64,000 nucleotides of DNA from Squalus acanthias (Eukaryota). Under the pieces are notes generated by a model. The model was not told the DNA's origin. It worked only from the letters and a program-made list of their open reading frames with translations, and searched no databases. Shown here piece after piece: positions 1 through 17,508 of this stretch. The stretch covers positions 96,350,001 through 96,414,000 of the forward strand of contig CM059431.1 of NCBI GenBank assembly GCA_030390025.1, read 5' to 3'. Position 1 is the first letter of the stretch. Each line of letters starts with the position of its first letter. The translations under genes were made by a program, and so were the position numbers.

Positions 1-2
1 AG

Positions 3-270
3 CGTCACGGCAAGCTGAGGCCGGTTGTCTATTCGTCCAGAGTGTTAACGGATGTGGAGAGAAGTTTCTCCAATTGCGAAAGGCACCTTTTAGCCACGCA
101 TTGGGCTGTGAAAAGATCAGCGATCTTCACAGGGCTCTCTCCCATCACTCTCCTCACCCATCACACACCAACTAAGATGCTTCTAGATGGGAGGATTAAA
201 GATGGGACCGTAAGCAGCGTGCGTATTGCGCGCTGGACCCTTCTTCTTTCCCAGATGGATCTTAAAGTAA
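3..270 (+). other. Degenerate Ty3/gypsy-type RNase H (tether/connection domain) within pol
   Basis: PVVYSSRVLTDVERSFSNCERHLLATHWAV...LLTHHTP...RIARWTLLL follows the Ty3-type RNase H pattern (PVAYxSRxL..AE..YS..EKELLA..WA...TDHxPL...RxxRW). The catalytic Glu and Asp positions read as His. Confidence 0.8.
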
Positions 271-2987
271 AAGGTCTTTGCGAGCCCAGGCTTGCGGCCA
301 ATTTGGTATACCCCGGTACAGCCCACCGATGTTCGGTGGAAGGGGTGTGGGACGTCAACATAGGTTTGCGGGCCGGGATACATCCCAATGGGCGCGAGAT
401 TTATGTTGATGGGTCTAGCACAGTATCTGCTGGCGAACGACTCACAGGGTGTGGAGTTTATGACCCTGCGGCAAACCTTGCCCTGGCGATCAAGCTCCCT
501 AGCACCATGAGCGCGCAGCAGGCTGAGCTGTCTGCCGTGGTGTACGTTGTTACCCACCCAGACATTTTCCCAACCCCATACACGATTTGCTCGGACAGTA
601 TGTTCACCTGCAATTCGTGTACGGAATACCTGGCCATTTGGTCCCGCCGTGGATACACCTCCGCGGACGGGCGACCTTTAACGGTGAAGCCCTTGCTGGA
701 AAAGATCTTAGCAGCAGCAGCAGGGGAGGAAGGGGAGATTTTCATCCATAAGGTGAAAGCTCACTCCTCCACAGAGCCCCGTGGGGAGGGCAACCAGCAG
801 GCGGATGCGCTAGCCAGGGAAGGTGCCCGCAACGGCATTTTCTGGGACCCCTATGGGACCAGACCCATGGCAGCGATCCAAGGCAGGGACGGGAATCCCG
901 GGAACACCAGGGTAGCATTGCCCCTAGACCTTAAGACCGTCCAAACCCAGGATCCCGCCCTAAAAGCAGTCCTAAAAACCATTGTTGAGGGGAAGCAGGT
1001 AGAAGGTCCGTACAGTACGGCAACCCTCTCAGTTAAGGAAGGCATGCTGTTCCGCGAGGAGCAGTGGGTTGTGCCGCAGCAGCACACGAGGGAATTCCTC
1101 CAGTTGGCTCACGAGGGACCAGGGGCAGGGCACCCCGGGCCCGAGGTTACCTGGCAACGGGTAGAGCAAGCGGGATGGTGGCCAGGGCTCAGGGAACAAG
1201 TCCGCGAGTTCTGTGCAAACTGTCTTGTGTGCGCTGCAAACAACCCAGACCCCCAGAAAAGGAAAGTGCCCATGGGACACGTAAGAAGGGTAGAGGGACC
1301 ATGGCAGTCGATACAGATCGACTATATAGGGCCCCTGCCTACCACCCAGGGAGGCTATAAATACTGCCTCGTCTTGGTGGATGTGTTTTCCAAGTGGGTG
1401 GAAGCCTTCCCCTGTCGAACAGCTTCGGCACTGGGTACTGCAAAAATCTTGGTCCGGGAAGTGTTCTCGCGGTGGGGACTCCCCCGTTTTGTGGAGTCAG
1501 ACCAAGGGAGTCATTTCACCGGCCAGGTGATGCAGAACACCCTCATGCTTTTGGGCATTGAAGGGAAGCGGCACGTAGCACACAATCCCCAGTCATCCGG
1601 GATTGTTGAACGCATGAACCGGACCCTGAAGGAGAAATTGAGGAAAGAGACTAGGAACTCGCCCCAAAAATGGGCGGAAGTTCTGCCTTTAGTCCTCATG
1701 GGGGTCCGGGCCAGTCAGTCAAAAAGTACGGGGTACTCCCCGCACGAGGTGATGACTGGGAGGCTCATGCGAACCCCCACCCATGTGCTAGCGCCGGTGC
1801 TCACTGAGGGTCAGCTCCAAGAGATAAGCAGGGACAAGTTCGCCCAGACCCTCTTGGAGCGCCTGAAGCAGGTTTATGAGCAGGCGGCTGGGAACATGGG
1901 AAGGCAGCATCAGGGCAATCGCCTGTTGCTGGAACCCCGCAAAACGCGGGAGTGGGAAGTAGGAGACCAGGTTATGGTCAGAAACTACGCCAGAGTAGGG
2001 AGTCTGGAACCACTGTATATGGGACCCTACAATATTGTAGATAAGGCGAGTCCCATGGTATACGCCGTAAAGGTACCTCGGCGCACTAAGTGGTTCCACG
2101 TAAACCAGTGCAAACTGTACAAGCCAGGTGCGCAAGGGAAAACCACAGGGGTAAAGCCCGCGAGTGGGGGAGCGCAGCCCCAGGTCGGACCACAAGGCAC
2201 ACAGGCAGGCAAAGCAGCTTGCATCAGGGGAGGAGACATCCTGGAAGATCACGAAGCATTTTTGTGGGGATGGGAGTCAGATGAGGATAGTGATGAAGGC
2301 GAGTGGGTTTTGGGGAACGTAAGGGGCGTTCCCATTTTAGGTATATGGAGGACACGGACTGCAGATGGAGATCCGCACAGGGCGGAGCCACAAGCTGCAG
2401 GTCCCGAACACAGGAGGGAGGAGCTAGGGGAGGCGGAGCCAGCCGCTGTGGGACCACAGGGAGTGACGGTGAGAACCTCCGAGCCCGAGCCGCCCGCTTT
2501 GAACGTCCCGCCCTCGGGGGAGGCAGAGATCGCGAGTGAAGGGTCGCCTGCTGGGCCGAGCAGGGCGGAGCCACAAACTGCAAGCCCCGAGGTTAGGGAG
2601 GCGGAGTCAGCGGAGGCGGAGCCAGCGACTGTGGTGGAACCACAGGTCGTCCCGATGGAAGTCTCGGAACCCGGTCCGTCGGTCATGGGATCCCTGCCCC
2701 TGACAACTCCCCGTAGGTCAAGTAGAGAACCCCAGCCCAGGAAGATGTGGGTATGGCCCCAGACTGTCCCAAGGCGTAGACTCAAGGTTAAGGCAGCCCA
2801 GATACAGCCCGGCCCCATCGCAGCAGCAACAGGCTGCGGCAGATCAGAGGAAGGGGTCAGTGCAGCAACAGGCTGCGGCAGATCAGAGGAAGGGGTCAGT
2901 GCAGCAACAGGCTGCGGCAGATCAGAGGAAAAGGTCAGAGCCCTCCCACCGTCTGGAAGAGCTCGCAGCAGCCTTCTCAGAATTTAA
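3..2987 (+). CDS. pol: Pol polyprotein, C-terminal part (5'-truncated by the window): degenerate RNase H/tether, RNase H, integrase, low-complexity tail
   Basis: The frame is open from base 3 (RHGKLRPVVYSSRVLTDVERSFSNCERHLLA), so the GTG at 42 is not a true start. RNase H motifs: IYVDGS, SAQQAEL, ICSDS, KVKAHS, GNQQADALA. Integrase motifs: HHCC, QIDYIGP, ESDQG, IVERMN, GPY. Stop TAA at 2985-2987. Confidence 0.95.
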   Translation, partial: RHGKLRPVVYSSRVLTDVERSFSNCERHLLATHWAVKRSAIFTGLSPITLLTHHTPTKMLLDGRIKDGTVSSVRIARWTLLLSQMDLKVKGLCEPRLAANLVYPGTAHRCSVEGVWDVNIGLRAGIHPNGREIYVDGSSTVSAGERLTGCGVYDPAANLALAIKLPSTMSAQQAELSAVVYVVTHPDIFPTPYTICSDSMFTCNSCTEYLAIWSRRGYTSADGRPLTVKPLLEKILAAAAGEEGEIFIHKVKAHSSTEPRGEGNQQADALAREGARNGIFWDPYGTRPMAAIQGRDGNPGNTRVALPLDLKTVQTQDPALKAVLKTIVEGKQVEGPYSTATLSVKEGMLFREEQWVVPQQHTREFLQLAHEGPGAGHPGPEVTWQRVEQAGWWPGLREQVREFCANCLVCAANNPDPQKRKVPMGHVRRVEGPWQSIQIDYIGPLPTTQGGYKYCLVLVDVFSKWVEAFPCRTASALGTAKILVREVFSRWGLPRFVESDQGSHFTGQVMQNTLMLLGIEGKRHVAHNPQSSGIVERMNRTLKEKLRKETRNSPQKWAEVLPLVLMGVRASQSKSTGYSPHEVMTGRLMRTPTHVLAPVLTEGQLQEISRDKFAQTLLERLKQVYEQAAGNMGRQHQGNRLLLEPRKTREWEVGDQVMVRNYARVGSLEPLYMGPYNIVDKASPMVYAVKVPRRTKWFHVNQCKLYKPGAQGKTTGVKPASGGAQPQVGPQGTQAGKAACIRGGDILEDHEAFLWGWESDEDSDEGEWVLGNVRGVPILGIWRTRTADGDPHRAEPQAAGPEHRREELGEAEPAAVGPQGVTVRTSEPEPPALNVPPSGEAEIASEGSPAGPSRAEPQTASPEVREAESAEAEPATVVEPQVVPMEVSEPGPSVMGSLPLTTPRRSSREPQPRKMWVWPQTVPRRRLKVKAAQIQPGPIAAATGCGRSEEGVSAATGCGRSEEGVSAATGCGRSEEKVRALPPSGRARSSLLRI
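396..830 (+). other. Second, catalytically intact RNase HI-type domain within pol
   Basis: D (YVDGS, 408-410), E (QQAEL), D (CSDS), H (KAHS) and D (QADALA, 804-806) are all present. Confidence 0.92.
1110..2125 (+). other. Integrase domain within pol (HHCC zinc finger, D,D(35)E core, GPY/F motif)
   Basis: His at 1110 and 1131, CxxC at ~1221-1232. D at 1320, D at 1500 and E at 1608, with 35 residues between the last two. LEPLYMGPYNIV at ~2004-2040. Confidence 0.95.
2379..2672 (+). repeat. Diverged direct duplication (two ~110-bp copies, 183 bp apart) in the pol C-terminal tail
   Basis: AGGGCGGAGCCACAA at 2379 and 2562. Peptides RAEPQAAGPEHRREELGEAEPAAVGPQ..SEP and RAEPQTASPEVREAESAEAEPATVVEPQ..SEP. 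Confidence 0.85.
2823..2938 (+). repeat. 3 x 39-bp near-perfect tandem repeat encoding AATGCGRSEEGVS at the end of pol
   Basis: GCAGCAACAGGCTGCGGCAGATCAGAGGAAGGGGTCAGT starts at 2823, 2862 and 2901. Confidence 0.95.
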
Positions 2988-3220
2988 AGGGGGCCGCCCT
3001 GAGAACGGGCGGCGCTGTACAGTTATAGTTTTAGATAAGTTTATAAGTTTCTAAGTTTATAGTTTAAGGTTAAGAATAAGTTTATAGTTTTAAATCAGGT
3101 TAAGTTTGTAGTTTAATTTTAACAGAAAATGGCAAAATGATGGGAGCTTTAGAGTTTTAGGTTTAGTTAAAGTTTATTCAGCGAACATTGAAGTTTACGT
3201 GAGGCGAGGTCAGGGGACCC

Positions 3221-3284
3221 GCTCACCCTTCACAGAAGCCAGAGACTCTTGCGAGGCTGGCTACCTCATTCTATCTGATCACAG
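3221..3284 (+). promoter_or_regulatory. Candidate env splice acceptors
   Basis: CTCACCCTTCACAG (AG 3234-3235) and CTCATTCTATCTGATCACAG (AG 3283-3284) lie just upstream of the env ATG. Retroviral env is normally expressed from a spliced RNA. Confidence 0.45.
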
Positions 3285-3297
3285 GAACCAAGGAAGG

Positions 3298-5649
3298 ATG
3301 GAACGAATTCTAGTATTGCTCGTGGCAATCGGATGTGGATTGGCCTATCGAGGCCGCACCAAGGATGTCGTGGTGTTTGGATGCTCCGGGGACACGGCCC
3401 CCATCGCGGTGGATGGGACCGGAAGACGGGAGGCTGAGGAGACCACCACCTATTTCCACAAGGGAAGGTGGCCAGGATGGCTGGGAACGAACTCAACGGA
3501 GTATTCCAGCACATCGGGGTTTGCCTACCAAGAGACTTCTTTAATGTGCCCCAAAGTAAGGATCATCGCACCCAGGATCAGCGTCACCGTCGGCAAACGG
3601 ATTTGTTTGACTTGTAGTGGGAATGTCCCATTGAGCCGATGGTGGTGGCTGCGAAAGCTGAGCAAAAACATGAGGAACTCTTCGGTCGAGTGGGAACGAC
3701 TGGGTAATAATACCCATCGGACAATTACGGGGACAAATGGACAAGTGAGAGTCTGTTGGGACAAATGGTGGGAACCGGATGAGGGAATTTATGTATGCAT
3801 GTGGGGGTCAAAGTACGCTTGCCCCAAAGGCATCTCCATATTTTTCATTAATCAATGGCAGGATAACGGACAGGGGATGAGGTGGGATGCGAGCACCAGG
3901 GGGTGCGGAGCCCCATACTCTTCGATCCCGGTAAATGCCACTGAACTCATTACGCGCCCACGCAAAGCCCCGCCCACGATTCCGGTGGTTCTAGCTGAAG
4001 AGGAAGGGTGCCCTAAAACTAGTAAGGGACCCGGGAATGGTTTGGTACTGGTCCCCACAGACCAGATACTATTCCAGGGGGTACATTACGCGGTGGCCTC
4101 GGTGATTTTAAATCTCACCGAGGTACGGTTACCAGAGTGGTGCCCCAAAAAGACGGAACAGTTGTATCAGGTCCTGTTGACCAAGATGTTCAGACAATTT
4201 TACGAATTCGATTTCGCGGAAATTGATAAAACAAGTTTGTACACCGCACCACAGGAAGTTTTGGATCAAGTAGGGAGGCAAAGAAGGGGTGTAGTGAACG
4301 ACGCGTTCACTGCTTTCAACACAGGTACATCTGTGGTCAACGCTCTAGACAGTGTGGAGCTGCAGACCCAGATTAATGGTTTAAAGACGCAATTAAAAGA
4401 CATTCTAACAGATGAGAATAAAGTGGTAGGGTCGGGTTTACACGAGGACCAAGCCATGACTCTCCATTTAAAGGAAATTATAGCAGAGTTAGAGAAACAT
4501 GCAAAGACGGTAAATGCCCTGATTAGGGAAGATCGGAATGCATCCGATCAAGCTGCGCAGAACGAGGTGTGCGTGCTTTACGGGGCGTGGTTACTGGGCG
4601 AGGGCCGCAGTAATTTGGAGGATTTAAAACAAGGTTTGGTCCCGTCCTGGATAAGTAACAAACACCTGCGGGCGCTCCACCCTTTTCAGAACGCATTAAG
4701 CCCGTGCCAGCTCAGGCTAGCTTCAGAAGCATACCCAGTCCCCGTGGACTGCGGACGATCAAACCATACTATCATGGGTATAGTACTACGTATGCCGGTT
4801 TTGGGCGACACAGCAAAGCCCGCCCCGGTATATCGGGTAGAGAACATTGGTGTCATTCAGGGGGGAGCCCACATTCGCTACGCAGCGGTTCCACCCTACG
4901 TCATCCGCTGGGAGCAAACGATGACAGGTACAGATCTCTCTGGTTGTCGTGGCAGGGGAGCACACATAATACTGTGCCCCCAGCACTTGAATGCCTTTTT
5001 AACACCACAGTGCGGGTTCAGAACGGCTGGCGCCAAGTCCATGAATTGCACCATGGAGGCAATGGCACAAGATCATGTGCCTCCGCAGGTAGCATACATC
5101 GGGGGTGGAACATATTGTGTTACCACTGCAGCGCAACACTACCAGCATGGAAACCGTAGCCGGTGTCCGGTGAGTGACAGCAGTTTCTGTTTCAAACCCA
5201 GGGCGGAAGTTCAAGTAGCACAACAGCGAATTGTCCCAATCCCTGAACCATCCACTGTTCATCTAACGGTAAAAGAGAATTTCACCGACTTGCAGCGATT
5301 CGTCGCGCATTTCGGATACCTCATTCCCCCTCTCCCTGAACACCTCACCAAGCTTTTGAAAGCCGTCGCGGTGTCACAAAAACATTTTTACACACTAGAG
5401 CAGAAAACTGTCGAAATAGGGACAGACATTCTGGATATAGTAATTCCACCGTGGTGGAATCTGTTCACCAATATTGAAGTGCCTTCATGGATCAGGATAG
5501 CCTCCCACATTTTAGTCGTATGCCAAGTTTTTATTGTAGTGTACCTATTGGTCGTACATTGTAAAAGAGACAAACGCCTCACCAAGCATGAAAACACGGG
5601 AGAGTGGCGAGAACGTTACGTGCGCGTGCACGATGAAAGCACCGTGTGA
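3298..5649 (+). CDS. env: Envelope glycoprotein (783 aa): signal peptide, Ig-like domain, furin site, fusion peptide/heptad repeat, Cys-rich F-like region, TM anchor, short tail
   Basis: ATG 3298 in strong Kozak context (AGGATGG) is followed by the signal peptide MERILVLLVAIGCGLA. There are multiple NxS/T sequons. RQRR at 4276-4287 is followed by GVVNDAFTAFNTGTSVVNAL and a heptad repeat. The hydrophobic TM IASHILVVCQVFIVVYLLVV lies at ~5497-5556. Confidence 0.9.
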   Translation: MERILVLLVAIGCGLAYRGRTKDVVVFGCSGDTAPIAVDGTGRREAEETTTYFHKGRWPGWLGTNSTEYSSTSGFAYQETSLMCPKVRIIAPRISVTVGKRICLTCSGNVPLSRWWWLRKLSKNMRNSSVEWERLGNNTHRTITGTNGQVRVCWDKWWEPDEGIYVCMWGSKYACPKGISIFFINQWQDNGQGMRWDASTRGCGAPYSSIPVNATELITRPRKAPPTIPVVLAEEEGCPKTSKGPGNGLVLVPTDQILFQGVHYAVASVILNLTEVRLPEWCPKKTEQLYQVLLTKMFRQFYEFDFAEIDKTSLYTAPQEVLDQVGRQRRGVVNDAFTAFNTGTSVVNALDSVELQTQINGLKTQLKDILTDENKVVGSGLHEDQAMTLHLKEIIAELEKHAKTVNALIREDRNASDQAAQNEVCVLYGAWLLGEGRSNLEDLKQGLVPSWISNKHLRALHPFQNALSPCQLRLASEAYPVPVDCGRSNHTIMGIVLRMPVLGDTAKPAPVYRVENIGVIQGGAHIRYAAVPPYVIRWEQTMTGTDLSGCRGRGAHIILCPQHLNAFLTPQCGFRTAGAKSMNCTMEAMAQDHVPPQVAYIGGGTYCVTTAAQHYQHGNRSRCPVSDSSFCFKPRAEVQVAQQRIVPIPEPSTVHLTVKENFTDLQRFVAHFGYLIPPLPEHLTKLLKAVAVSQKHFYTLEQKTVEIGTDILDIVIPPWWNLFTNIEVPSWIRIASHILVVCQVFIVVYLLVVHCKRDKRLTKHENTGEWRERYVRVHDESTV

Positions 5650-6086
5650 TCGGAAAATGGCGTCACTCCCGCTCGCCACGTGCGCCGCGGAAGTTTGTAC
5701 TCGATCATGATTTTCAAAGACTGTAAATACGTTTGGAACTCGACATGTTTTAAGAGTTGGTGTTGATTATTTTGGTGATGGTTTGTAGTTAAAAATGATT
5801 GTTTGGTTTTGGGTTCTGTTTTTCCTTTCCCTGATTAAAAAGATGAATGTACAGGTGATACGAGAAGCGTTGGCCTGGTCACACCGGGAAGGAAAACAAG
5901 TGGTGTAAGTTTAAGGGCAAATGATGCCTACGGTGCTATAAAGTGTAATTTTTTTGGGAAATAAGGACGACACAAAGACCCTAGATAGTTTAAGTTATGG
6001 GATTAAATTTTCTGGATTCGGAGAAAATCGAGATAATTATTGCTCACCACAATATTTTTGATACGATAAGCGGAGTTCTTCGCATC

Positions 6087-6098
6087 AACAGGAGGGAC
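6087..6098 (+). promoter_or_regulatory. Polypurine tract (plus-strand primer site)
   Basis: AACAGGAGGGAC lies immediately 5' of the LTR start TGTAG at 6099. Confidence 0.8.
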
Positions 6099-6666
6099 TG
6101 TAGAATTCGCAATATATCGCGATTTTATAAATAAGGAGAGAACACATAGTTTCGTTCAAACAGCTTTTATTTCAGCAGAATGCTGTCAGGTTTTCAAAGT
6201 GGACACAAGCAGCTTGTAAAATGGCCACCGAGCATCGTGGCAGAAGCTTCCAGAATACAGTGGGCAGACAAGATGGCGTTCGAATAAACATTTCAGTATC
6301 AGATTGGTTAATACACAGCAAACACTGATAAAGACAGGATGCAACCTGTCTGCATTCGACACAATAGCAAAGATATAAGTGCTGGAATCATTCTCCATGC
6401 ACAAGTAAGGACCATTGTAATGGGCAATCGAAGGCCCATCCAGACACAGCAATACACATATCAGTATTCGAGAAGGCCCCAAACCCAGTCAGGGAGACTC
6501 CTAGCCGGCTCGACAATGGGGAAAACATTAACGGCTACTTGGCCAGTTTAAGGTGCTACCGAAACCCATTAAAGGAAAGAATCGCCCCATGCTGGGAGTT
6601 TTGTGCACCAGCATTTCACAAAGGACAAACATTAAGATTTGAGCGGGAGATAAGGGAACACAGCAC

Positions 6667-6671
6667 TATAA
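6667..6671 (+). promoter_or_regulatory. Candidate LTR TATA box
   Basis: TATAACTATAG is conserved in the solo LTR (16884-16894, minus strand) and is followed by a pyrimidine-rich tract. Confidence 0.4.
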
Positions 6672-7226
6672 CTATAGTGAACAAATGTCCATCAAGGGCT
6701 TATTCTCTGGATTCGACTTATATCTCTGCTGACTCTTGACTCGGGCTGGACTCTTGACTGATTGATCTCGCTGATGACTGCTGAACTTTTATTCTCCTAT
6801 TCTGATCCTCGGGTATCGCTCTGCTGGACGAGCAGCCTTCTGTTTTTCTCTGGACTCTGTTGACTACGAGACGAGACGAGACGAGAAGAAGAGGAGAAGA
6901 ATCCACGTACCGCCACGGTCAGTAAACCCCGATCGCGCCCGAAAATACAAGAAAGAACTGCAGCGAAACGAGCCGAGTGCCTTACTTTAAAATTCTCCGA
7001 GTTATCACGAGTGGTGAGCATGAGTCTCGAATCCTACGAATCTAGCTTAGGACAGATATTGATAGGGGAGGGTTTTAAGTATTAAGGATAATTGTAATGT
7101 GTGCCCCCATTTATGATGTGTCGTTCGTTCCTCGTTTCCCTGGAATTAGTTACATAACTGCGTGTAAGATTGTACTGTCATTAATCTGTGCTTATGACAT
7201 GTATTTCGTAATCTTAAGTATTATGC

Positions 7227-7232
7227 AATAAA
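7227..7232 (+). terminator. LTR polyadenylation signal AATAAA
   Basis: ATGCAATAAAGAT is conserved at the homologous position in the solo LTR (TTTATT at 16051-16056). Confidence 0.7.
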
Positions 7233-7476
7233 GATTTTCCATTTCGTACCATTCAACCGAGTCTACCTGAGTTTCATCTCCATTACTGCTCTCGCATCTA
7301 AGTCCAGTGTCTAGAACCGTAAGGGCGAGTGATTCGAACCACTCACAGGTGTGTCTAGTGCTCCCAGACTGGCTGGAGATCAGAACAGGCAACAAGGCCT
7401 AAACCCGCACTGACATACAGGCTGCACAGAGCCACGCGAATCTCACAGGCTGAGAGACACGTTCAAAACCCTTACA

Positions 7477-10400
7477 ATACTCAGTTTCCAAATCGTTTCA
7501 CACCAATTCCATCCAATACTAACTTTTAAATCCGTTCCATTCCAATTCAATCCATTACTCAGTTTCCAATACATTCCAGTCCAACTCAATATAGTACTCA
7601 GTTTTCAATCTGCTCCATTCCAATTTAATCCAATACTCTGATTCCAATTCATTCCAGTCCAATTCAATTCAATACTCAGTTTCCAATTAGTTCCAGTCCA
7701 ACTCAGTCCAGTACTCAGTTTCCAATCCGTTCCATTCCAATTTAATCCAATACTCAGATTCCAATTCATTCCAATCAAATTCAATACAATACTTAGTTTC
7801 CAATCCGTTCCAGTACAATTAAATCCAACACTCAGTTTCCAATGCGTTGCAGTCCAGCTGAATCCAATACTCAGTTTTCTATTCGGCCCTGTCCAATTCA
7901 TTCCAATACTCAGTTCCCAATCCGTTCCATTCCAATTCAAACAAGTACTCAGTTTCCAAGTCATTCCAGTCCAATTCAATCCAATACTCAGATTCCAATT
8001 CGTTCCAGTCCATTTCAATCCAATACTGACTTTCCAATCCGTTCCATTCCAATTCAAACCAAAACTAAATTTCCATTTCGTTCCAGTTCAATTCAATTCA
8101 CTACTCAATTTCCAATCGGTTCCAGTCAAATTCAATCTAATACTCAGGTTCAAGTCCATTCCATTCCAAATTCATACAATACTCAGTTTCTAATTTGTCC
8201 TATTTCAATTCAATCCAATACTCAGTTTGCAATTCGTTCCAGTCCAATTCAATCCAATATTCAGTTTCCAAACCTTTCCAGTCATTTATTCCAATATTCA
8301 GTTTCCAATGCGTTCCAGTCCTGTTCGATGCTATACTCAGTTTCCATTCCGCTCCATTCCAATTCAAAACAATACTCAGTTTCCAATCCATTCTATTCCA
8401 ATTCAAACCAATACTCAGTTTCCAATTCATTCCAGTCCATGTCAATCCAATACGCAGTTTCCAATTAGTTCCAGTCCAACTAATGCATTACTCAGTTTCC
8501 AATCCGTTCCTTTCCAATTCAACCCAATACTCAGTTTCCAATTCGTCCCAGAATAATTCAATCCAAAACTCAGTTTCCAAAACATTCCAGTCCAACTCAA
8601 TCCAGTACTCAGTTTCCAATCTGTTCCATTCCAATTTAATCCAATACTCAGCTTCCAATTCATTCCAGTCGAATTCAATCCAATACTCAGTTTCCAATTC
8701 ATTCAAGTCCAACTCAGTCCAGTACTCAGATTTCAATCCATCCCATTCCAATTCAAGCCAATACTCAGTTTCCAATCCCTTCCATTCCAATACTCAGTTT
8801 CCCATGCATTCCAGTCCTCTTCAATCCAATACTCAGTTTCCAATCCGTTCTATTCCAATCCAACTCAATACTCAATTTCCAATCCATTCCAATCGAATTC
8901 AACACAATACACAGTTTCCAGTTTGATCCAGTCCAATTAAATCCAATACTCAGTTTCCAAATCGTTCCAGACCAATTCCATCCAATACTAACTTTTAAAT
9001 CCGTTCCATTCCAATTCAATCCAATACTCAGTTTCCAATACATTCCAGTCCAACTCAATATAGTACTCAGTTTTCAATCTGCTCCATTCCAATTTAATCC
9101 AATACTCTGATTCCAATTCATTCCAGTCCAATTCAATTCAATACTCAGTTTCCAATTAGTTCCAGTCCAACTCAGTCCAGTACTCAGTTTCCAATCCGTT
9201 CCATTCCAATTTAATCCAATACTCAGATTCCAATTCATTCCAGTCAAATTCAATACAATACTTAGTTTCCAATCTGTTGCAGTACAATTAAATCCAACAC
9301 TCAGTTTCCAATGCGTTGCAGTCCAGCTGAATCCAATACTCAGTTTTCTATTCGGCCCCGTCCAATTCATTCCAATACTCAGTTCCCAATCCGTTCCATT
9401 CCAATTCAAACAAGTACTCAGTTTCCAAGTCGTTCCAGTCCAATTCAATCCAATACTCAGATTCCAATTCGTTCCAGTCCATTTCAATCCAATACTGACT
9501 TTCCAATCCGTTCCATTCCAATTCAAACCAAAACTAAATTTCCAATTCGTTCCAGTTCAATTCAATTCACTACTCAATTTCCAATCGGTTCCAGTCAAAT
9601 TCAATCTAATACTCAGGTTCAAGTCCATTCCATTCCAAATTCATACAATACTCAGTTTCTAATTTGTCCTATTTCAATTCAATCCAATACTCAGTTTGCA
9701 ATTCGTTCCAGTCCAATTCAATCCAATATTCAGTTTCCAAACCTTTCCAGTCAATTTATTCCAATATTCAGTTTCCAATGTGTTCCAGTCCTGTTCGATG
9801 CTATACTCAGTTTCCATTCCGCTCCATTCCAATTCAAAACAATACTCAGTTTCCAATCCCTTCTATTCCAATTCAAACCAATACTCAGTTTCCAATTCAT
9901 TCCAGTCCATGTCAATCCAATACGCAGTTTCCAATTAGTTCCAGTCCAACTAAATGCATTTCTCAGTTTCCAATCCGTTCCTTTCCAATTCAACCCAATA
10001 CTCAGTTTCCAATTCGTTCCAGAACAAGTCAATCCAAAACTCAGTTTCCAATACATTGCAGTCCAACTCAATCCAGTACTCAGTTTCCAATCTGTTCCAT
10101 TCCAATTTAATCCAATACTCAGCTTTCAATTCATTCCAGTCGAATTCAATCCAATACTCAGTATCCAATTCATTCAAGTCCAACTCAGTCCAGTACTCAG
10201 AGTTCAATCCATCCCATTCCAATTCAAGCCAATACTCAGTTTCCAATCCCTTCCATTCCAATACTCAGTTTCCCATGCATTCCAGTCCTCTTCAATCCAA
10301 TACTCAGTTTCCAATCCGTTACAATTCCAGTTCAACCAAATACTCAGTTCCCAATTCGTTCCAGACCAGCTCTGTCCAGTACTCAGTTTTCAATCCATCC

Positions 10401-15841: not shown

Positions 15842-17508
15842 TGTAAGGGGTCACGGTACTGGTGCGAGGTGAGGCCTTCGTTGCCTATACTATTGCTTGC
15901 TCTGGTCTCCGGCCAGACTTTTGCAATAAGCACCTGTGAGTGGTTCGACCCACTCGCCCTTACAGTTCTGACACCTGGACTTAGATGCAAGGAGCAGTAA
16001 TGCAGAGAAAAACTCAAATAGACCCGGTTGAATAGCACGAAATGAATATCTTTATTGCATGGCGTCTAAAATCATGAAATACATGTCATAGGTGCAGATC
16101 AAAGAGAATACAAGTATACACACGTTCATGAAACTTGGTCTATGGAAATGGGGAACACACGACACATCGAAAAAGGGGGAACACATTATACATTAACCTT
16201 AGAAACCCACCCTCCCTTAATATACCTAAACTACGTCTGGATTTGTAGGATCGGAAAACATGCTCACCACTCGGCTCACTTCGGAAATTTAAAGTGAGGC
16301 ACTCAGCTCATTTTGCTGCGGCGCCTGACTGTCACGTGGTTATAAGGGTTTCTGCACCCCACTTGTTTACTCTCGCTGCCGTGAAAGGTAAGCCAGATTC
16401 CCTGATGTCATGAAGTGGTCGATGGATTCAGACCAGATCGTGCAGTAATCCGTAGAATTCAAAGGAAACGGTTCATGTAGTAGTCTGTAGAATTCAAAAA
16501 TGGATTCTGTCGTTATAACTTCAGGCGCGGTCGGGGTTTACTGACCGCGGCGGCACGTGGAATTTCTTCTCGTCTTTCTTCTCGTCTTTCTTCTGGTTAC
16601 TCGGGCCTCTGGGTCCGGACACCATTTACCGACGCTCGGGATGGTGTACCCTGTTACTTGCCCTGTCGAGGCGGCTCGTTCCGATTGAGCTCCACCCAAC
16701 ACTCGAATAACCGACCAGCACGGCTAAGAGTCAAGAGTCAAGAGAGTCCAGCAAGAGCTTCAGGAAGAGAGAGGGTTCAGCCAGAGTCAAGAGAGTCAAG
16801 AGAATCAAATGAATCCAGAGCCCAGAGTCAAGGAAGAGGCCAGGAAGCGAGAGAGAGTCAAGAGACCGATGGACATTTGTCCTCTATAGTTATACTGTTA
16901 TGTTGGCCTTATCTCCCGCTCAAATCTAAATGTTATCCTTTGTGTGATTTTGGCGCCCAAAACTCCCAGCATGGGGCGATTATCTTCTTAACGGGTTTCG
17001 GTAGCACCTGAAACTGGCCAACTATCCGTTAATACCTACTCCATTGTTGAGCCAGCCAGGATGTGTATGAATCGTCTCCTCGACTGGTTTTGGGGCCCCC
17101 CGAATACTGGCTTAATCACCCGCCAATGTTTCTCTCATTGTTGAGCCGGGGGGGTATTTGTGTATTGATGTGTCTAGATGGGTTCTCGATGGCCCCGTTC
17201 AATGATCCTTACTGTGCGTAGGAAACGATTCCAGCACTTATATCATTGCTATTGTTCAAAAATGCAAACGGGTTGCATCCTGTCTTTACAATGTGTACCG
17301 AGTATGATCCGATCTCATACTGAATGTATATTCGACGCCATCTTGTCTGCCCACTGTGTCTCTGGAAGCTTCTGCCACGATGCGCGGCGGCCATTTTACA
17401 GGCTTCTGTGTCCTTTATTATCAGGACAGCATTTCGTTTAATAAAAATGATCAATTGAATCTGCTTCTCTCATGTTATTTTGAATCGCGATAATTGCGAA
17501 ACTCTACA
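15842..17508 (-). mobile_element. Solo LTR (1667 bp) of a related subfamily, with a 4-bp target-site duplication GCCA
   Basis: The reverse complement starts TGTAGAGTTTCGCAATTATCGCGATT and ends CCCTTACA, colinear with 6099-7476. GCCA is at 15838-15841 and 17509-17512. An uninterrupted counterpart of the site (TTGAAGCCAATACTCAGTTT..TTTGTTCCTTTGCACTTGAACCC) occurs at ~14337 and ~15377. Confidence 0.95.

Follow-up and report, generated by a model that had tools for sequence, protein, structure and literature searches.

The window analyzed here is a stretch of 64,000 nucleotides from Squalus acanthias (assembly GCA_030390025.1, contig CM059431.1, positions 96,350,001 to 96,414,000), and it opens with the 3' half of one provirus of a high-copy endogenous retrovirus (ERV). 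The env gene of this provirus is intact, and the Env protein that it encodes is predicted to be a class I fusion protein of the F type, i.e. one that shares its fold with the fusion (F) proteins of paramyxo- and pneumoviruses. An initial annotation, made from the letters of the DNA, had described an F-like subunit in this protein and had taken it as the mark of a lokiretrovirus (Loki). We consider a different carrier likely, namely a retrovirus from a lineage with a canonical reverse transcriptase (RT) that is found in cartilaginous fishes, frogs and coelacanth, and for which the closest readable row is that of snakehead retrovirus (SnRV).

Sequence features and predicted fold of Env

The env gene is one ATG-to-stop open reading frame (ORF) of 783 aa (Table 1); the chance of 783 stop-free codons is about (61/64)^783, or about 5e-17, by our own arithmetic. 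Most of what the initial annotation had listed for the protein was found again: the intact ORF, the furin-type motif RQRR with exactly 453 residues after it, the Cys-rich block, the long heptad repeat, the second helical segment and the membrane anchor. RHRR or RQRR stands at the same place in Env homologues, giving a conserved R-x-R-R. The cysteines of the subunit lie at 550, 560, 572, 584, 607, 623 and 631, in what we take to be a Cys-bonded, beta-rich head, and they form the block TDLSGC..IILCP..CGF..NCT..TYCVT..CPVSDSSFCF; a consensus built from 40 members of the family retains it. The two helical segments correspond to helices of the structural model, the first of them long (heptad repeats A and B; HRA and HRB), in which DSSP also gives a helix at 730-766 around the anchor. 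One feature is weaker than described. The peptide GVVNDAFTAFNTGTSVVNAL does follow the cut where a fusion-peptide-like N-terminus had been reported, but it is only mildly hydrophobic, as are the 20 residues after RQRR, and it is absent from the 15 most hydrophobic 19-residue windows of Env. The motif C-x6-CC, which the annotation had not seen in the subunit either, occurs nowhere in the 783 aa, and Env is therefore not of the gamma type in its transmembrane subunit (TM). A gamma-type TM was rejected as a candidate on this absence together with the length of the subunit; the sole retroviral TM matched was that of HERV-K (E 0.0035), over the HR2-anchor part.

To collect relatives of Env, 1.84 billion representatives were searched exhaustively with HMMER, and 51 relatives were returned. 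An alignment of 40 rows (38 of the 51 relatives, the query and P0069; 13 chimeric or short rows were left out) was used to build an AlphaFold2 monomer model, and VIA-align was run on the top 995 PDB chains from Foldseek. Two parts of the model, aa 240-310 and aa 420-650, are confident, with a predicted local distance difference test (pLDDT) score of 80-94; over aa 1-235 the score stays under 50. In the Foldseek comparison with the PDB, 38 of the 38 matches listed (ranks 1-50) were paramyxo- or pneumovirus F proteins; the best was F of human parainfluenza virus 3 (hPIV3; 1ztm) with E 3.7e-10, probability 1.00 and ~500 alignment columns. With VIA-align, 1ztm_A reached Z 12.9 over 330 aligned residues (model 245-651 versus chain 26-432, r.m.s.d. 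14.3), the postfusion F of Langya virus Z 12.8 over 356 residues and that of Nipah virus Z 11.7 over 287 residues (r.m.s.d. 5.2). Z was at least 8 in 224 of the 995 chains, and the values of 10-12.9 were obtained over 270-356 residues spanning model 245-651/714. Helical models can reach Z ~13 by chance; the matches here extend over the beta-rich head, and one family accounts for them. The model thus supports a paramyxo-/pneumovirus F fold for the subunit after RQRR together with ~80 residues before the cut. The initial annotation had compared its layout with F1 and had suggested a Foldseek or AlphaFold check; this comparison, run on the monomer, bears out the likeness and extends it to an F2-like part. 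In the model, the F-like module (F2 plus F1) begins at about aa 245, ~80 aa ahead of the furin site, and the more distant Env relatives from the HMMER search align only from aa 221-235 onward.

A wider range of proteins was matched in BFVD. The best matches were arthropod mononegavirus glycoproteins (Sanxia water strider virus 4, E 4e-15), followed by a 928-aa protein without a name (E 7.5e-13), baculovirus F proteins (E 2.4e-11 and 1.2e-10), respirovirus F0 (E 2e-10) and the Envs of two epsilonretroviruses, walleye epidermal hyperplasia virus 1 (WEHV-1; E 2.2e-9) and walleye dermal sarcoma virus (WDSV; E 2.1e-8). Further matches of the F-type model were a glycoprotein of a fish filovirus, a protein of an abalone herpesvirus and ORF72 of Ranid herpesvirus 2. 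By language-model features in the Atlas, Env aa 225-783 fell closest to a Gypsy/Baculo_F cluster (0.95) and next to a Fusion_gly cluster (0.94).

Several results tell against an F fold. The model is a monomer with a mean pLDDT of 60.7 and a predicted TM-score (pTM) of 0.44, and the global r.m.s.d. of the structure alignments is large (14-19 Å), the long helix being the cause. Pfam gave no match of the window Env to PF00523, Baculo_F or Foamy_virus_ENV at E <= 1, its output being DUF6360 (E 0.047) and Ig_3 (E 0.33) alone. A phmmer search of the PDB with Env gave nothing below E 0.5, and the 40-row Env profile, searched against the PDB, was matched in its HR2-anchor part only, by the HERV-K TM mentioned above and, at E 0.014, by a coronavirus spike.

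Ahead of the F-like module lies a region of ~225 aa that is alignable among the cartilaginous-fish homologues only. Its segment aa 88-170 (3559-3807) reads ICLTC ... WWWLRK ... DEGIYVC, which resembles the signature of an immunoglobulin (Ig) domain. Ig_3 was matched weakly in three of eight family members, with a best E of 0.0085 that lies below the Pfam cut-off; a phmmer search of the PDB gave a JAM match at E 0.56, and the Ig clusters of the Atlas scored 0.78-0.80, which is also weak. A separate AlphaFold2 model of Env aa 1-245, built from eight rows, has a pLDDT of 39. We infer that the region is a candidate receptor-binding part of Env, perhaps Ig-like. If the signature is real, segment aa 88-170 would be an Ig-like domain captured in the surface subunit of a retrovirus.

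Taken together with the fold, these parts suggest how Env would work. Furin-type cleavage at RQRR would prime an Env trimer, and binding of a receptor by the N-terminal region would trigger the extension of HRA. HRB would then pack onto HRA as a six-helix bundle, by which the two membranes would be pulled together. Cleavage, trimer formation, receptor binding and fusion activity are all predicted in this scheme.

Host spread and lineage of the carrier

A host look-up covered 32 of the 51 Env relatives, of which 23 are from cartilaginous fishes, four from frogs and two from coelacanth, three have no taxon and none is from a ray-finned fish. The cartilaginous hosts are Pristiophorus, Chiloscyllium punctatum, C. 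plagiosum, Heterodontus, Scyliorhinus, Heptranchias, Mustelus and Rhinoraja, and the closest Env among those looked up is from Rhinoraja (75%). The Pol family occurs in the same range of hosts, which fits Env and Pol travelling together; their linkage on one contig was seen in the window only. The family is high-copy, with many diverged and some broken members, and the window copy is one of many. Window positions 1-7480 were matched by 17,695 and 10,984 short contigs from two DNA runs at 90-100% likeness. The variants are mostly transitions, at many sites the window copy stands apart from almost every contig (for example A>G at place 41), and some copies have 1-base gaps inside env (place 4860). 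Four runs, whose label as RNA is a guess, hold 0.54-0.58 of the env words, and two of them cover all 30 bins by contigs, although contigs cannot show transcription. Public gene models from sawshark and horn shark (P0004, P0005, P0012 and P0041) hold pieces of env fused to host genes, the partners being Niban 1-like, a C2H2 zinc-finger protein, cadherin-related 5-like and fbxo15. These fusions are probably gene-model chimeras that arose from ERV insertions.

The RT of the provirus lies outside the window, and a relative was used as its proxy: P0070, a 1145-aa Pol that includes RT and is 85% identical to the window Pol. A quick IQ-TREE run was made on 59 rows, after rows with fewer than 300 aligned residues had been dropped from 85 candidates. 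In this tree, a 19-row clade of elements with dual RNase H (support 100) consists of a Loki-like clade (five rows; Shimodaira-Hasegawa-like approximate likelihood-ratio test, SH-aLRT, 98) and a 14-row clade (99). The latter joins class I ERVs with MLVIN_C or Gag_p30 (six rows, 100) to the family of the window (eight rows, 94), which comprises P0070, three Xenopus rows, Rhinophrynus, Aquarana, Latimeria and one row without a taxon. The RT motifs of P0070, CLPQGFHNS and QYVDDLLL, are of the canonical retroviral type; the teleost Loki-like rows instead read RGNLIYVDDILMRS, and the ray-finned-fish relatives carry ..RG.L.YVDDIL..S.TF, as in the published Loki rows. When six RT motifs of P0070 were compared with the supplement of the Loki paper, QYVDDLLL and CLPQGF matched canonical rows (MuLV, FLV, Xen-1; EIAV) and four matched nothing. 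Among solved structures, the RT-RNase H part of P0070 scored 222-230 bits against murine leukemia virus (MLV) and xenotropic MLV-related virus (XMRV), 190-195 against foamy viruses, 147 against Ty3 RT and ~50-60 against human immunodeficiency virus (HIV).

Within the canonical side, the likeness to SnRV is the closest that could be read. The RT of P0070 agrees with the printed SnRV row at 27/57 and 39/81 positions (66/138 in total), with shared blocks around WPV.KPD.SWR, LDISN.FWSI and LPQGFH, and the RNase H of the window shares YLA.W.RRG...ADG and KVKAH with that of SnRV. According to a 2025 paper on SnRV, the SnRV clade includes ERVs of reptiles, birds, amphibians and fishes; the virus itself is complex, with an Env tail of 136 aa and a 3'ORF of 205 codons. 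A genome-screening paper counts 2843 clade III RT loci in six cartilaginous-fish genomes, and clade III ERVs are therefore common in these hosts. With moderate confidence, we place the carrier on the side of the canonical retroviruses, probably near the SnRV clade.

A number of points speak against this placement. The likeness to SnRV was counted by eye against printed rows, and the placement rests on the RT of a relative that is 85% identical in Pol. The Loki-like labels of the trees denote motif likeness to published rows rather than named sequences, and the trees were built without named SnRV, foamy, epsilon or beta/lenti Pol. An approximately unbiased (AU) test does not reject the family and the Loki-like rows as one clade (difference in log-likelihood 26.8, p 0.123). 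A first integrase tree, of 33 rows, paired the family with the Loki-like clade as its sister group (support 97); the tree with class I ERVs added (37 rows), which was made without a named CGIN1, has a three-way split at its base, and an RNase H tree of 23 rows gave no resolution. Moreover, the window Env has a tail of 28 aa versus 136 aa in SnRV, and no ORF of at least 100 aa follows env, where SnRV has its 205-codon 3'ORF; the long tail and the 3'ORF belong to SnRV itself, and its clade need not share them.

The strongest alternative is that the provirus is a lokiretrovirus after all, from a deep branch in cartilaginous fishes and amphibians that was missed by screens and whose Env is of the same origin but has diverged; we regard this as unlikely. 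Loki was defined by an RT that forms the sister group of the remaining retroviruses, by dual RNase H and by an Env similar in sequence to PF00523 (Wang & Han, 2020; PMC7947760). In the window, Pol has a dual RNase H and Env a predicted F fold, and it was from an F-like Env that the initial annotation had drawn its conclusion. However, dual RNase H is common to all retroviruses and does not discriminate, and an F-like Env is not diagnostic of Loki, because it has been published for foamy viruses and because the model also matches epsilonretrovirus, baculovirus and mononegavirus proteins. The AU test and the first integrase tree are points in favour of a lokiretrovirus, as is an integrase core that is about half identical, by eye, to the Loki-Xtr row. 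The names of the Pol relatives point the same way: NCBI calls those from sharks 'NYNRIN-like', and NYNRIN is the same gene as CGIN1. It is to CGIN1 that the Loki integrase is closest (PMC7947760).

The remaining evidence runs the other way. The RT tree that the initial annotation had suggested leans against Loki by that annotation's own refuting condition, a Pol that groups inside Orthoretrovirinae, as the proxy joins the class I ERVs (99) outside the Loki-like clade (98), and its RT motifs are canonical, even though the AU test leaves Loki unrejected. A published Loki Env matches PF00523 at E 2.2e-7 (PMC7947760), whereas none of 22 family Envs does so (window Env at E <= 1, 21 homologues at E <= 0.1). 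Twelve short motifs, taken from the window integrase and from the Pol and Env of Xenopus relatives, were all absent from the supplement in which the Loki consensus proteins are printed. As printed in that supplement, the Loki-Xtr Env has ~560 aa, no region ahead of F2 and a strongly hydrophobic peptide after RPKR. The hosts of Loki run from lampreys to reptiles (PMC7947760), but none of the six cartilaginous-fish genomes screened was scored positive in the supplement, and two of these negative genomes, Chiloscyllium punctatum and Scyliorhinus torazame, contain the Env/Pol family of the window. The lokiretrovirus label is thus probably wrong. Lokiretroviruses may nevertheless be present in public protein sets without a label: P0076-P0085 (Nothobranchius, Amia, Atractosteus and Brachyhypopomus), annotated 'NYNRIN-like / Gypsy integrase-like', carry the Loki RT motif and form one clade, and they are probably lokiretrovirus Pols.

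It is quite improbable, in our estimate, that the provirus is a foamy-like (spuma-related) ERV of cartilaginous fishes with a diverged foamy Env. Among solved structures, the integrase of prototype foamy virus (PFV) is the best relative of the window integrase (E 5e-34, aligned from residue 5 of the chain), followed by that of Ty3 (1.5e-29); endogenous foamy viruses of cartilaginous fishes are the subject of an existing paper, and foamy Env has been published as F-like, as noted above. Against this stand the lack of a Foamy_virus_ENV match at E <= 1, the rank of feline foamy virus Env in BFVD (47, below mononegavirus, baculovirus, paramyxovirus and epsilonretrovirus proteins) and the higher RT-RNase H scores with MLV/XMRV than with foamy viruses. 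In addition, foamy Env has a long leader subunit, whereas the window Env opens with a short signal-like peptide.

We give very little credence to a host gene co-opted from env by a syncytin-like capture, with its frame maintained because it serves the host and not as part of a mobile element. The ORF is intact and homologues are annotated as parts of host gene models, but the gene stands in proviral order, after an open pol and before a long terminal repeat (LTR), the pol, env and LTR stretch recurs in thousands of contig variants, and the models concerned are chimeras with zinc-finger, Niban and cadherin genes. Least credible of all is an env-carrying, 'errantivirus'-like Ty3/gypsy element with an env of baculovirus-F type: the top Atlas cluster, the baculovirus F matches in BFVD, a weak Baculo_F match in one Env homologue (E 0.0011, below the cut-off) and the mild hydrophobicity of the post-cleavage peptide would suit it, but Pol has an added RNase H after the tether, the RT tree puts the family in the dual-RNase-H clade of 19 rows (100) and every Ty3/gypsy row elsewhere, and Chary & Hayashi, who describe F-type env in invertebrate Ty3/gypsy elements, report that they found no homologue of invertebrate errantiviruses among intact vertebrate ERVs.

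Layout of the provirus and its surroundings

From the start of the window, the provirus runs through the tether, RNase H and integrase of pol to env and the 3' LTR. The window start falls within pol, and gag, protease, RT and the 5' LTR thus lie outside the 64 kb. The tether is a degenerate first RNase H; together with the added RNase H it forms the dual RNase H that is typical of retroviruses. The PDB matches of the added RNase H were human RNase H1, MLV/XMRV and PFV (E 1e-8 to 1e-6), an order that does not discriminate. Beyond the SH3-like domain, Pol continues for ~275 aa in a low-complexity tail that none of 33 Pol relatives matched by phmmer. This tail holds three near-exact 13-aa repeats, i.e. 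a 39-bp tandem unit repeated three times at 2823-2938, and an antisense ORF of 189 aa (2249-2818) overlaps it. A gap of 310 bases separates the pol stop from the start of env. Between env and the LTR there is no ORF of at least 100 aa, the small ORFs there being of 37-45 aa. The 3' LTR contains AATAAA at 6283 and 7227 and TATAAA at 6126.

Table 1. Features of the provirus and of the rest of the window (aa positions refer to the window Pol and Env)
Feature	Position	Strand	Basis
pol, 3' part, open from the first window bases; 994 codons, stop 2985-2987	3-2987	+	Pfam RT_RNaseH, RNase_H, Integrase_H2C2, rve, SH3_Tf2-1
Tether/connection domain (degenerate first RNase H), Pol aa 2-84	6-254	+	PF17917, E 1.2e-10
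Second, added RNase H, Pol aa 132-275	396-827	+	PF00075, E 3.7e-20
Integrase: zinc-binding aa 357-415, catalytic core aa 433-529, SH3-like C-terminal domain aa 664-706	1071-2120	+	Pfam
Pol C-terminal tail, E/P/A-rich low complexity, aa 720-994	2160-2984	+	Sequence
env ORF, intact, 783 aa	3298-5649	+	Single ATG-to-stop ORF
Probable signal peptide, Env aa 1-16, MERILVLLVAIGCGLA	3298-3345	+	Predicted from sequence; Kyte-Doolittle 1.35 for window 1-19
Family-specific N-terminal region, Env aa 17-244	3346-4029	+	Homologue alignment
F2-like segment, Env aa 245-326	4030-4275	+	VIA-align/Foldseek alignments start at model 243-245 versus F residue 23-38; pLDDT 84-94 over aa 240-300
Furin-type cleavage motif RQRR, Env aa 327-330	4276-4287	+	Sequence
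F1-like fusion subunit, Env aa 331-783 (453 aa)	4288-5646	+	Sequence and model
HRA long helix, Env aa 333-444	4294-4629	+	DSSP on model
Beta-rich head, Env aa 477-650	4726-5247	+	DSSP on model (beta-rich part 477-645)
Cys block, Env aa 550-631	4945-5190	+	Sequence
HRB helix, Env aa 679-711	5332-5430	+	DSSP on model
Membrane anchor, Env aa 730-755, then 28-aa tail	5485-5562	+	Strongest hydrophobic stretch, Kyte-Doolittle 2.5
Candidate polypurine tract, purine-rich AACAGGAGGGAC, adjoining the LTR	6087-6098	+	Predicted from sequence
3' LTR, 1378 bp, TG...CA ends	6099-7476	+	Ends set by comparison with a related inverted copy
39-bp satellite array, ~1446 copies (78% matches), outside the provirus	7477-64000		Repeat analysis
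Solo LTR of a related second subfamily, 1667 bp, TG...CA ends, inside the satellite	15842-17508	-	73-84% identity to 6098-7392

The satellite array, which directly abuts the provirus, takes up ~56.5 kb or 88% of the window and has a strong strand bias (GC skew about -0.57). GCCA stands on both sides of the solo LTR within it; this may be a 4-bp target duplication, or it may be chance in repetitive DNA.

Significance and comparison with known F-type systems

The origin of retroviral env genes is an old open question. F-like Envs were reported earlier for lokiretroviruses from sequence (2020; PMC7947760) and for foamy viruses from structure (2024; Fernandez et al.). The family of the window would add a further F-type lineage, one that is abundant in sharks, skates, frogs and coelacanth and that combines a Pol of the canonical side with an extra N-terminal region in Env; the F type would then look widespread among early-branching vertebrate retroviruses. 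In the accessible parts of the literature searched, no F-fold Env was described for an SnRV-like or cartilaginous-fish retrovirus. A broader hypothesis, which we put forward tentatively and hold to be doubtful at present, is that the F type is common and perhaps ancestral in deep fish and amphibian retroviral lineages (Loki, foamy, epsilon and SnRV-like), that the gamma-type Env is a later replacement, and that in this family an Ig-like receptor-binding domain has been fused ahead of F. If true, one polypeptide would do the job of two paramyxovirus proteins, and the intact gene in the window would be the first of its kind from a cartilaginous fish. An unbroken natural gene could be used to test cleavage, receptor use and fusion. 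For annotation, an F-like Env alone is poor ground for calling an element a lokiretrovirus, and annotators currently merge env pieces into host gene models, producing the zinc-finger, Niban and cadherin chimeras.

The window Env may be set beside the known systems as follows. With Loki the provirus shares a vertebrate ERV setting, dual RNase H and an F-related Env with a predicted furin cut, and it differs in the missing PF00523 match, the RT motifs, the position in the RT tree and the hosts. Foamy virus Env, whose structural relation to paramyxo-/pneumovirus F is stated in a meeting report and by Fernandez et al. (2024; PDB 8RM0/8RM1), has in common with it a large F-linked fusion subunit and furin cleavage, which is predicted in the window Env; unlike foamy Env, the window Env has no match to Foamy_virus_ENV (PF03408), and feline foamy virus Env is a weak match in BFVD (E 6.5e-5). 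The epsilonretroviruses are fish retroviruses whose Env is described as lacking the gamma-type hallmarks; the Envs of WDSV and WEHV-1 are much larger (1159 and 1317 aa) and their TM-scores are low (TMq 0.12-0.24), and no statement of an F-like fold for them was found in the accessible literature. Baculovirus F (Ld130), errantivirus Env and the arthropod mononegavirus glycoproteins match the model in BFVD (E 4e-15 to 1e-10), with which the Atlas features agree, but their carriers are DNA viruses, Ty3/gypsy elements and negative-strand RNA viruses without a dual-RNase-H Pol.

Among solved structures, the closest counterparts are the F proteins of paramyxo- and pneumoviruses (PF00523), such as those of hPIV3, respiratory syncytial virus (RSV), Nipah virus, Langya virus, Newcastle disease virus (NDV) and human metapneumovirus (hMPV). 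Sequence similarity to them is not detectable, ~225 aa stand ahead of F2, and the post-cut peptide is mildly hydrophobic. Unlike F, the window Env is encoded by a retrovirus, with no gene for a separate attachment protein in sight. Nevertheless, the order and the predicted fold are the same, from F2 and the cleavage site through HRA, the beta-rich domains and HRB to the anchor. The multibasic site also lies at a place that matches that of hPIV3 F, aa 330 corresponding to about F residue 111 by linear offset, and hPIV3 F is cut at 109/110.

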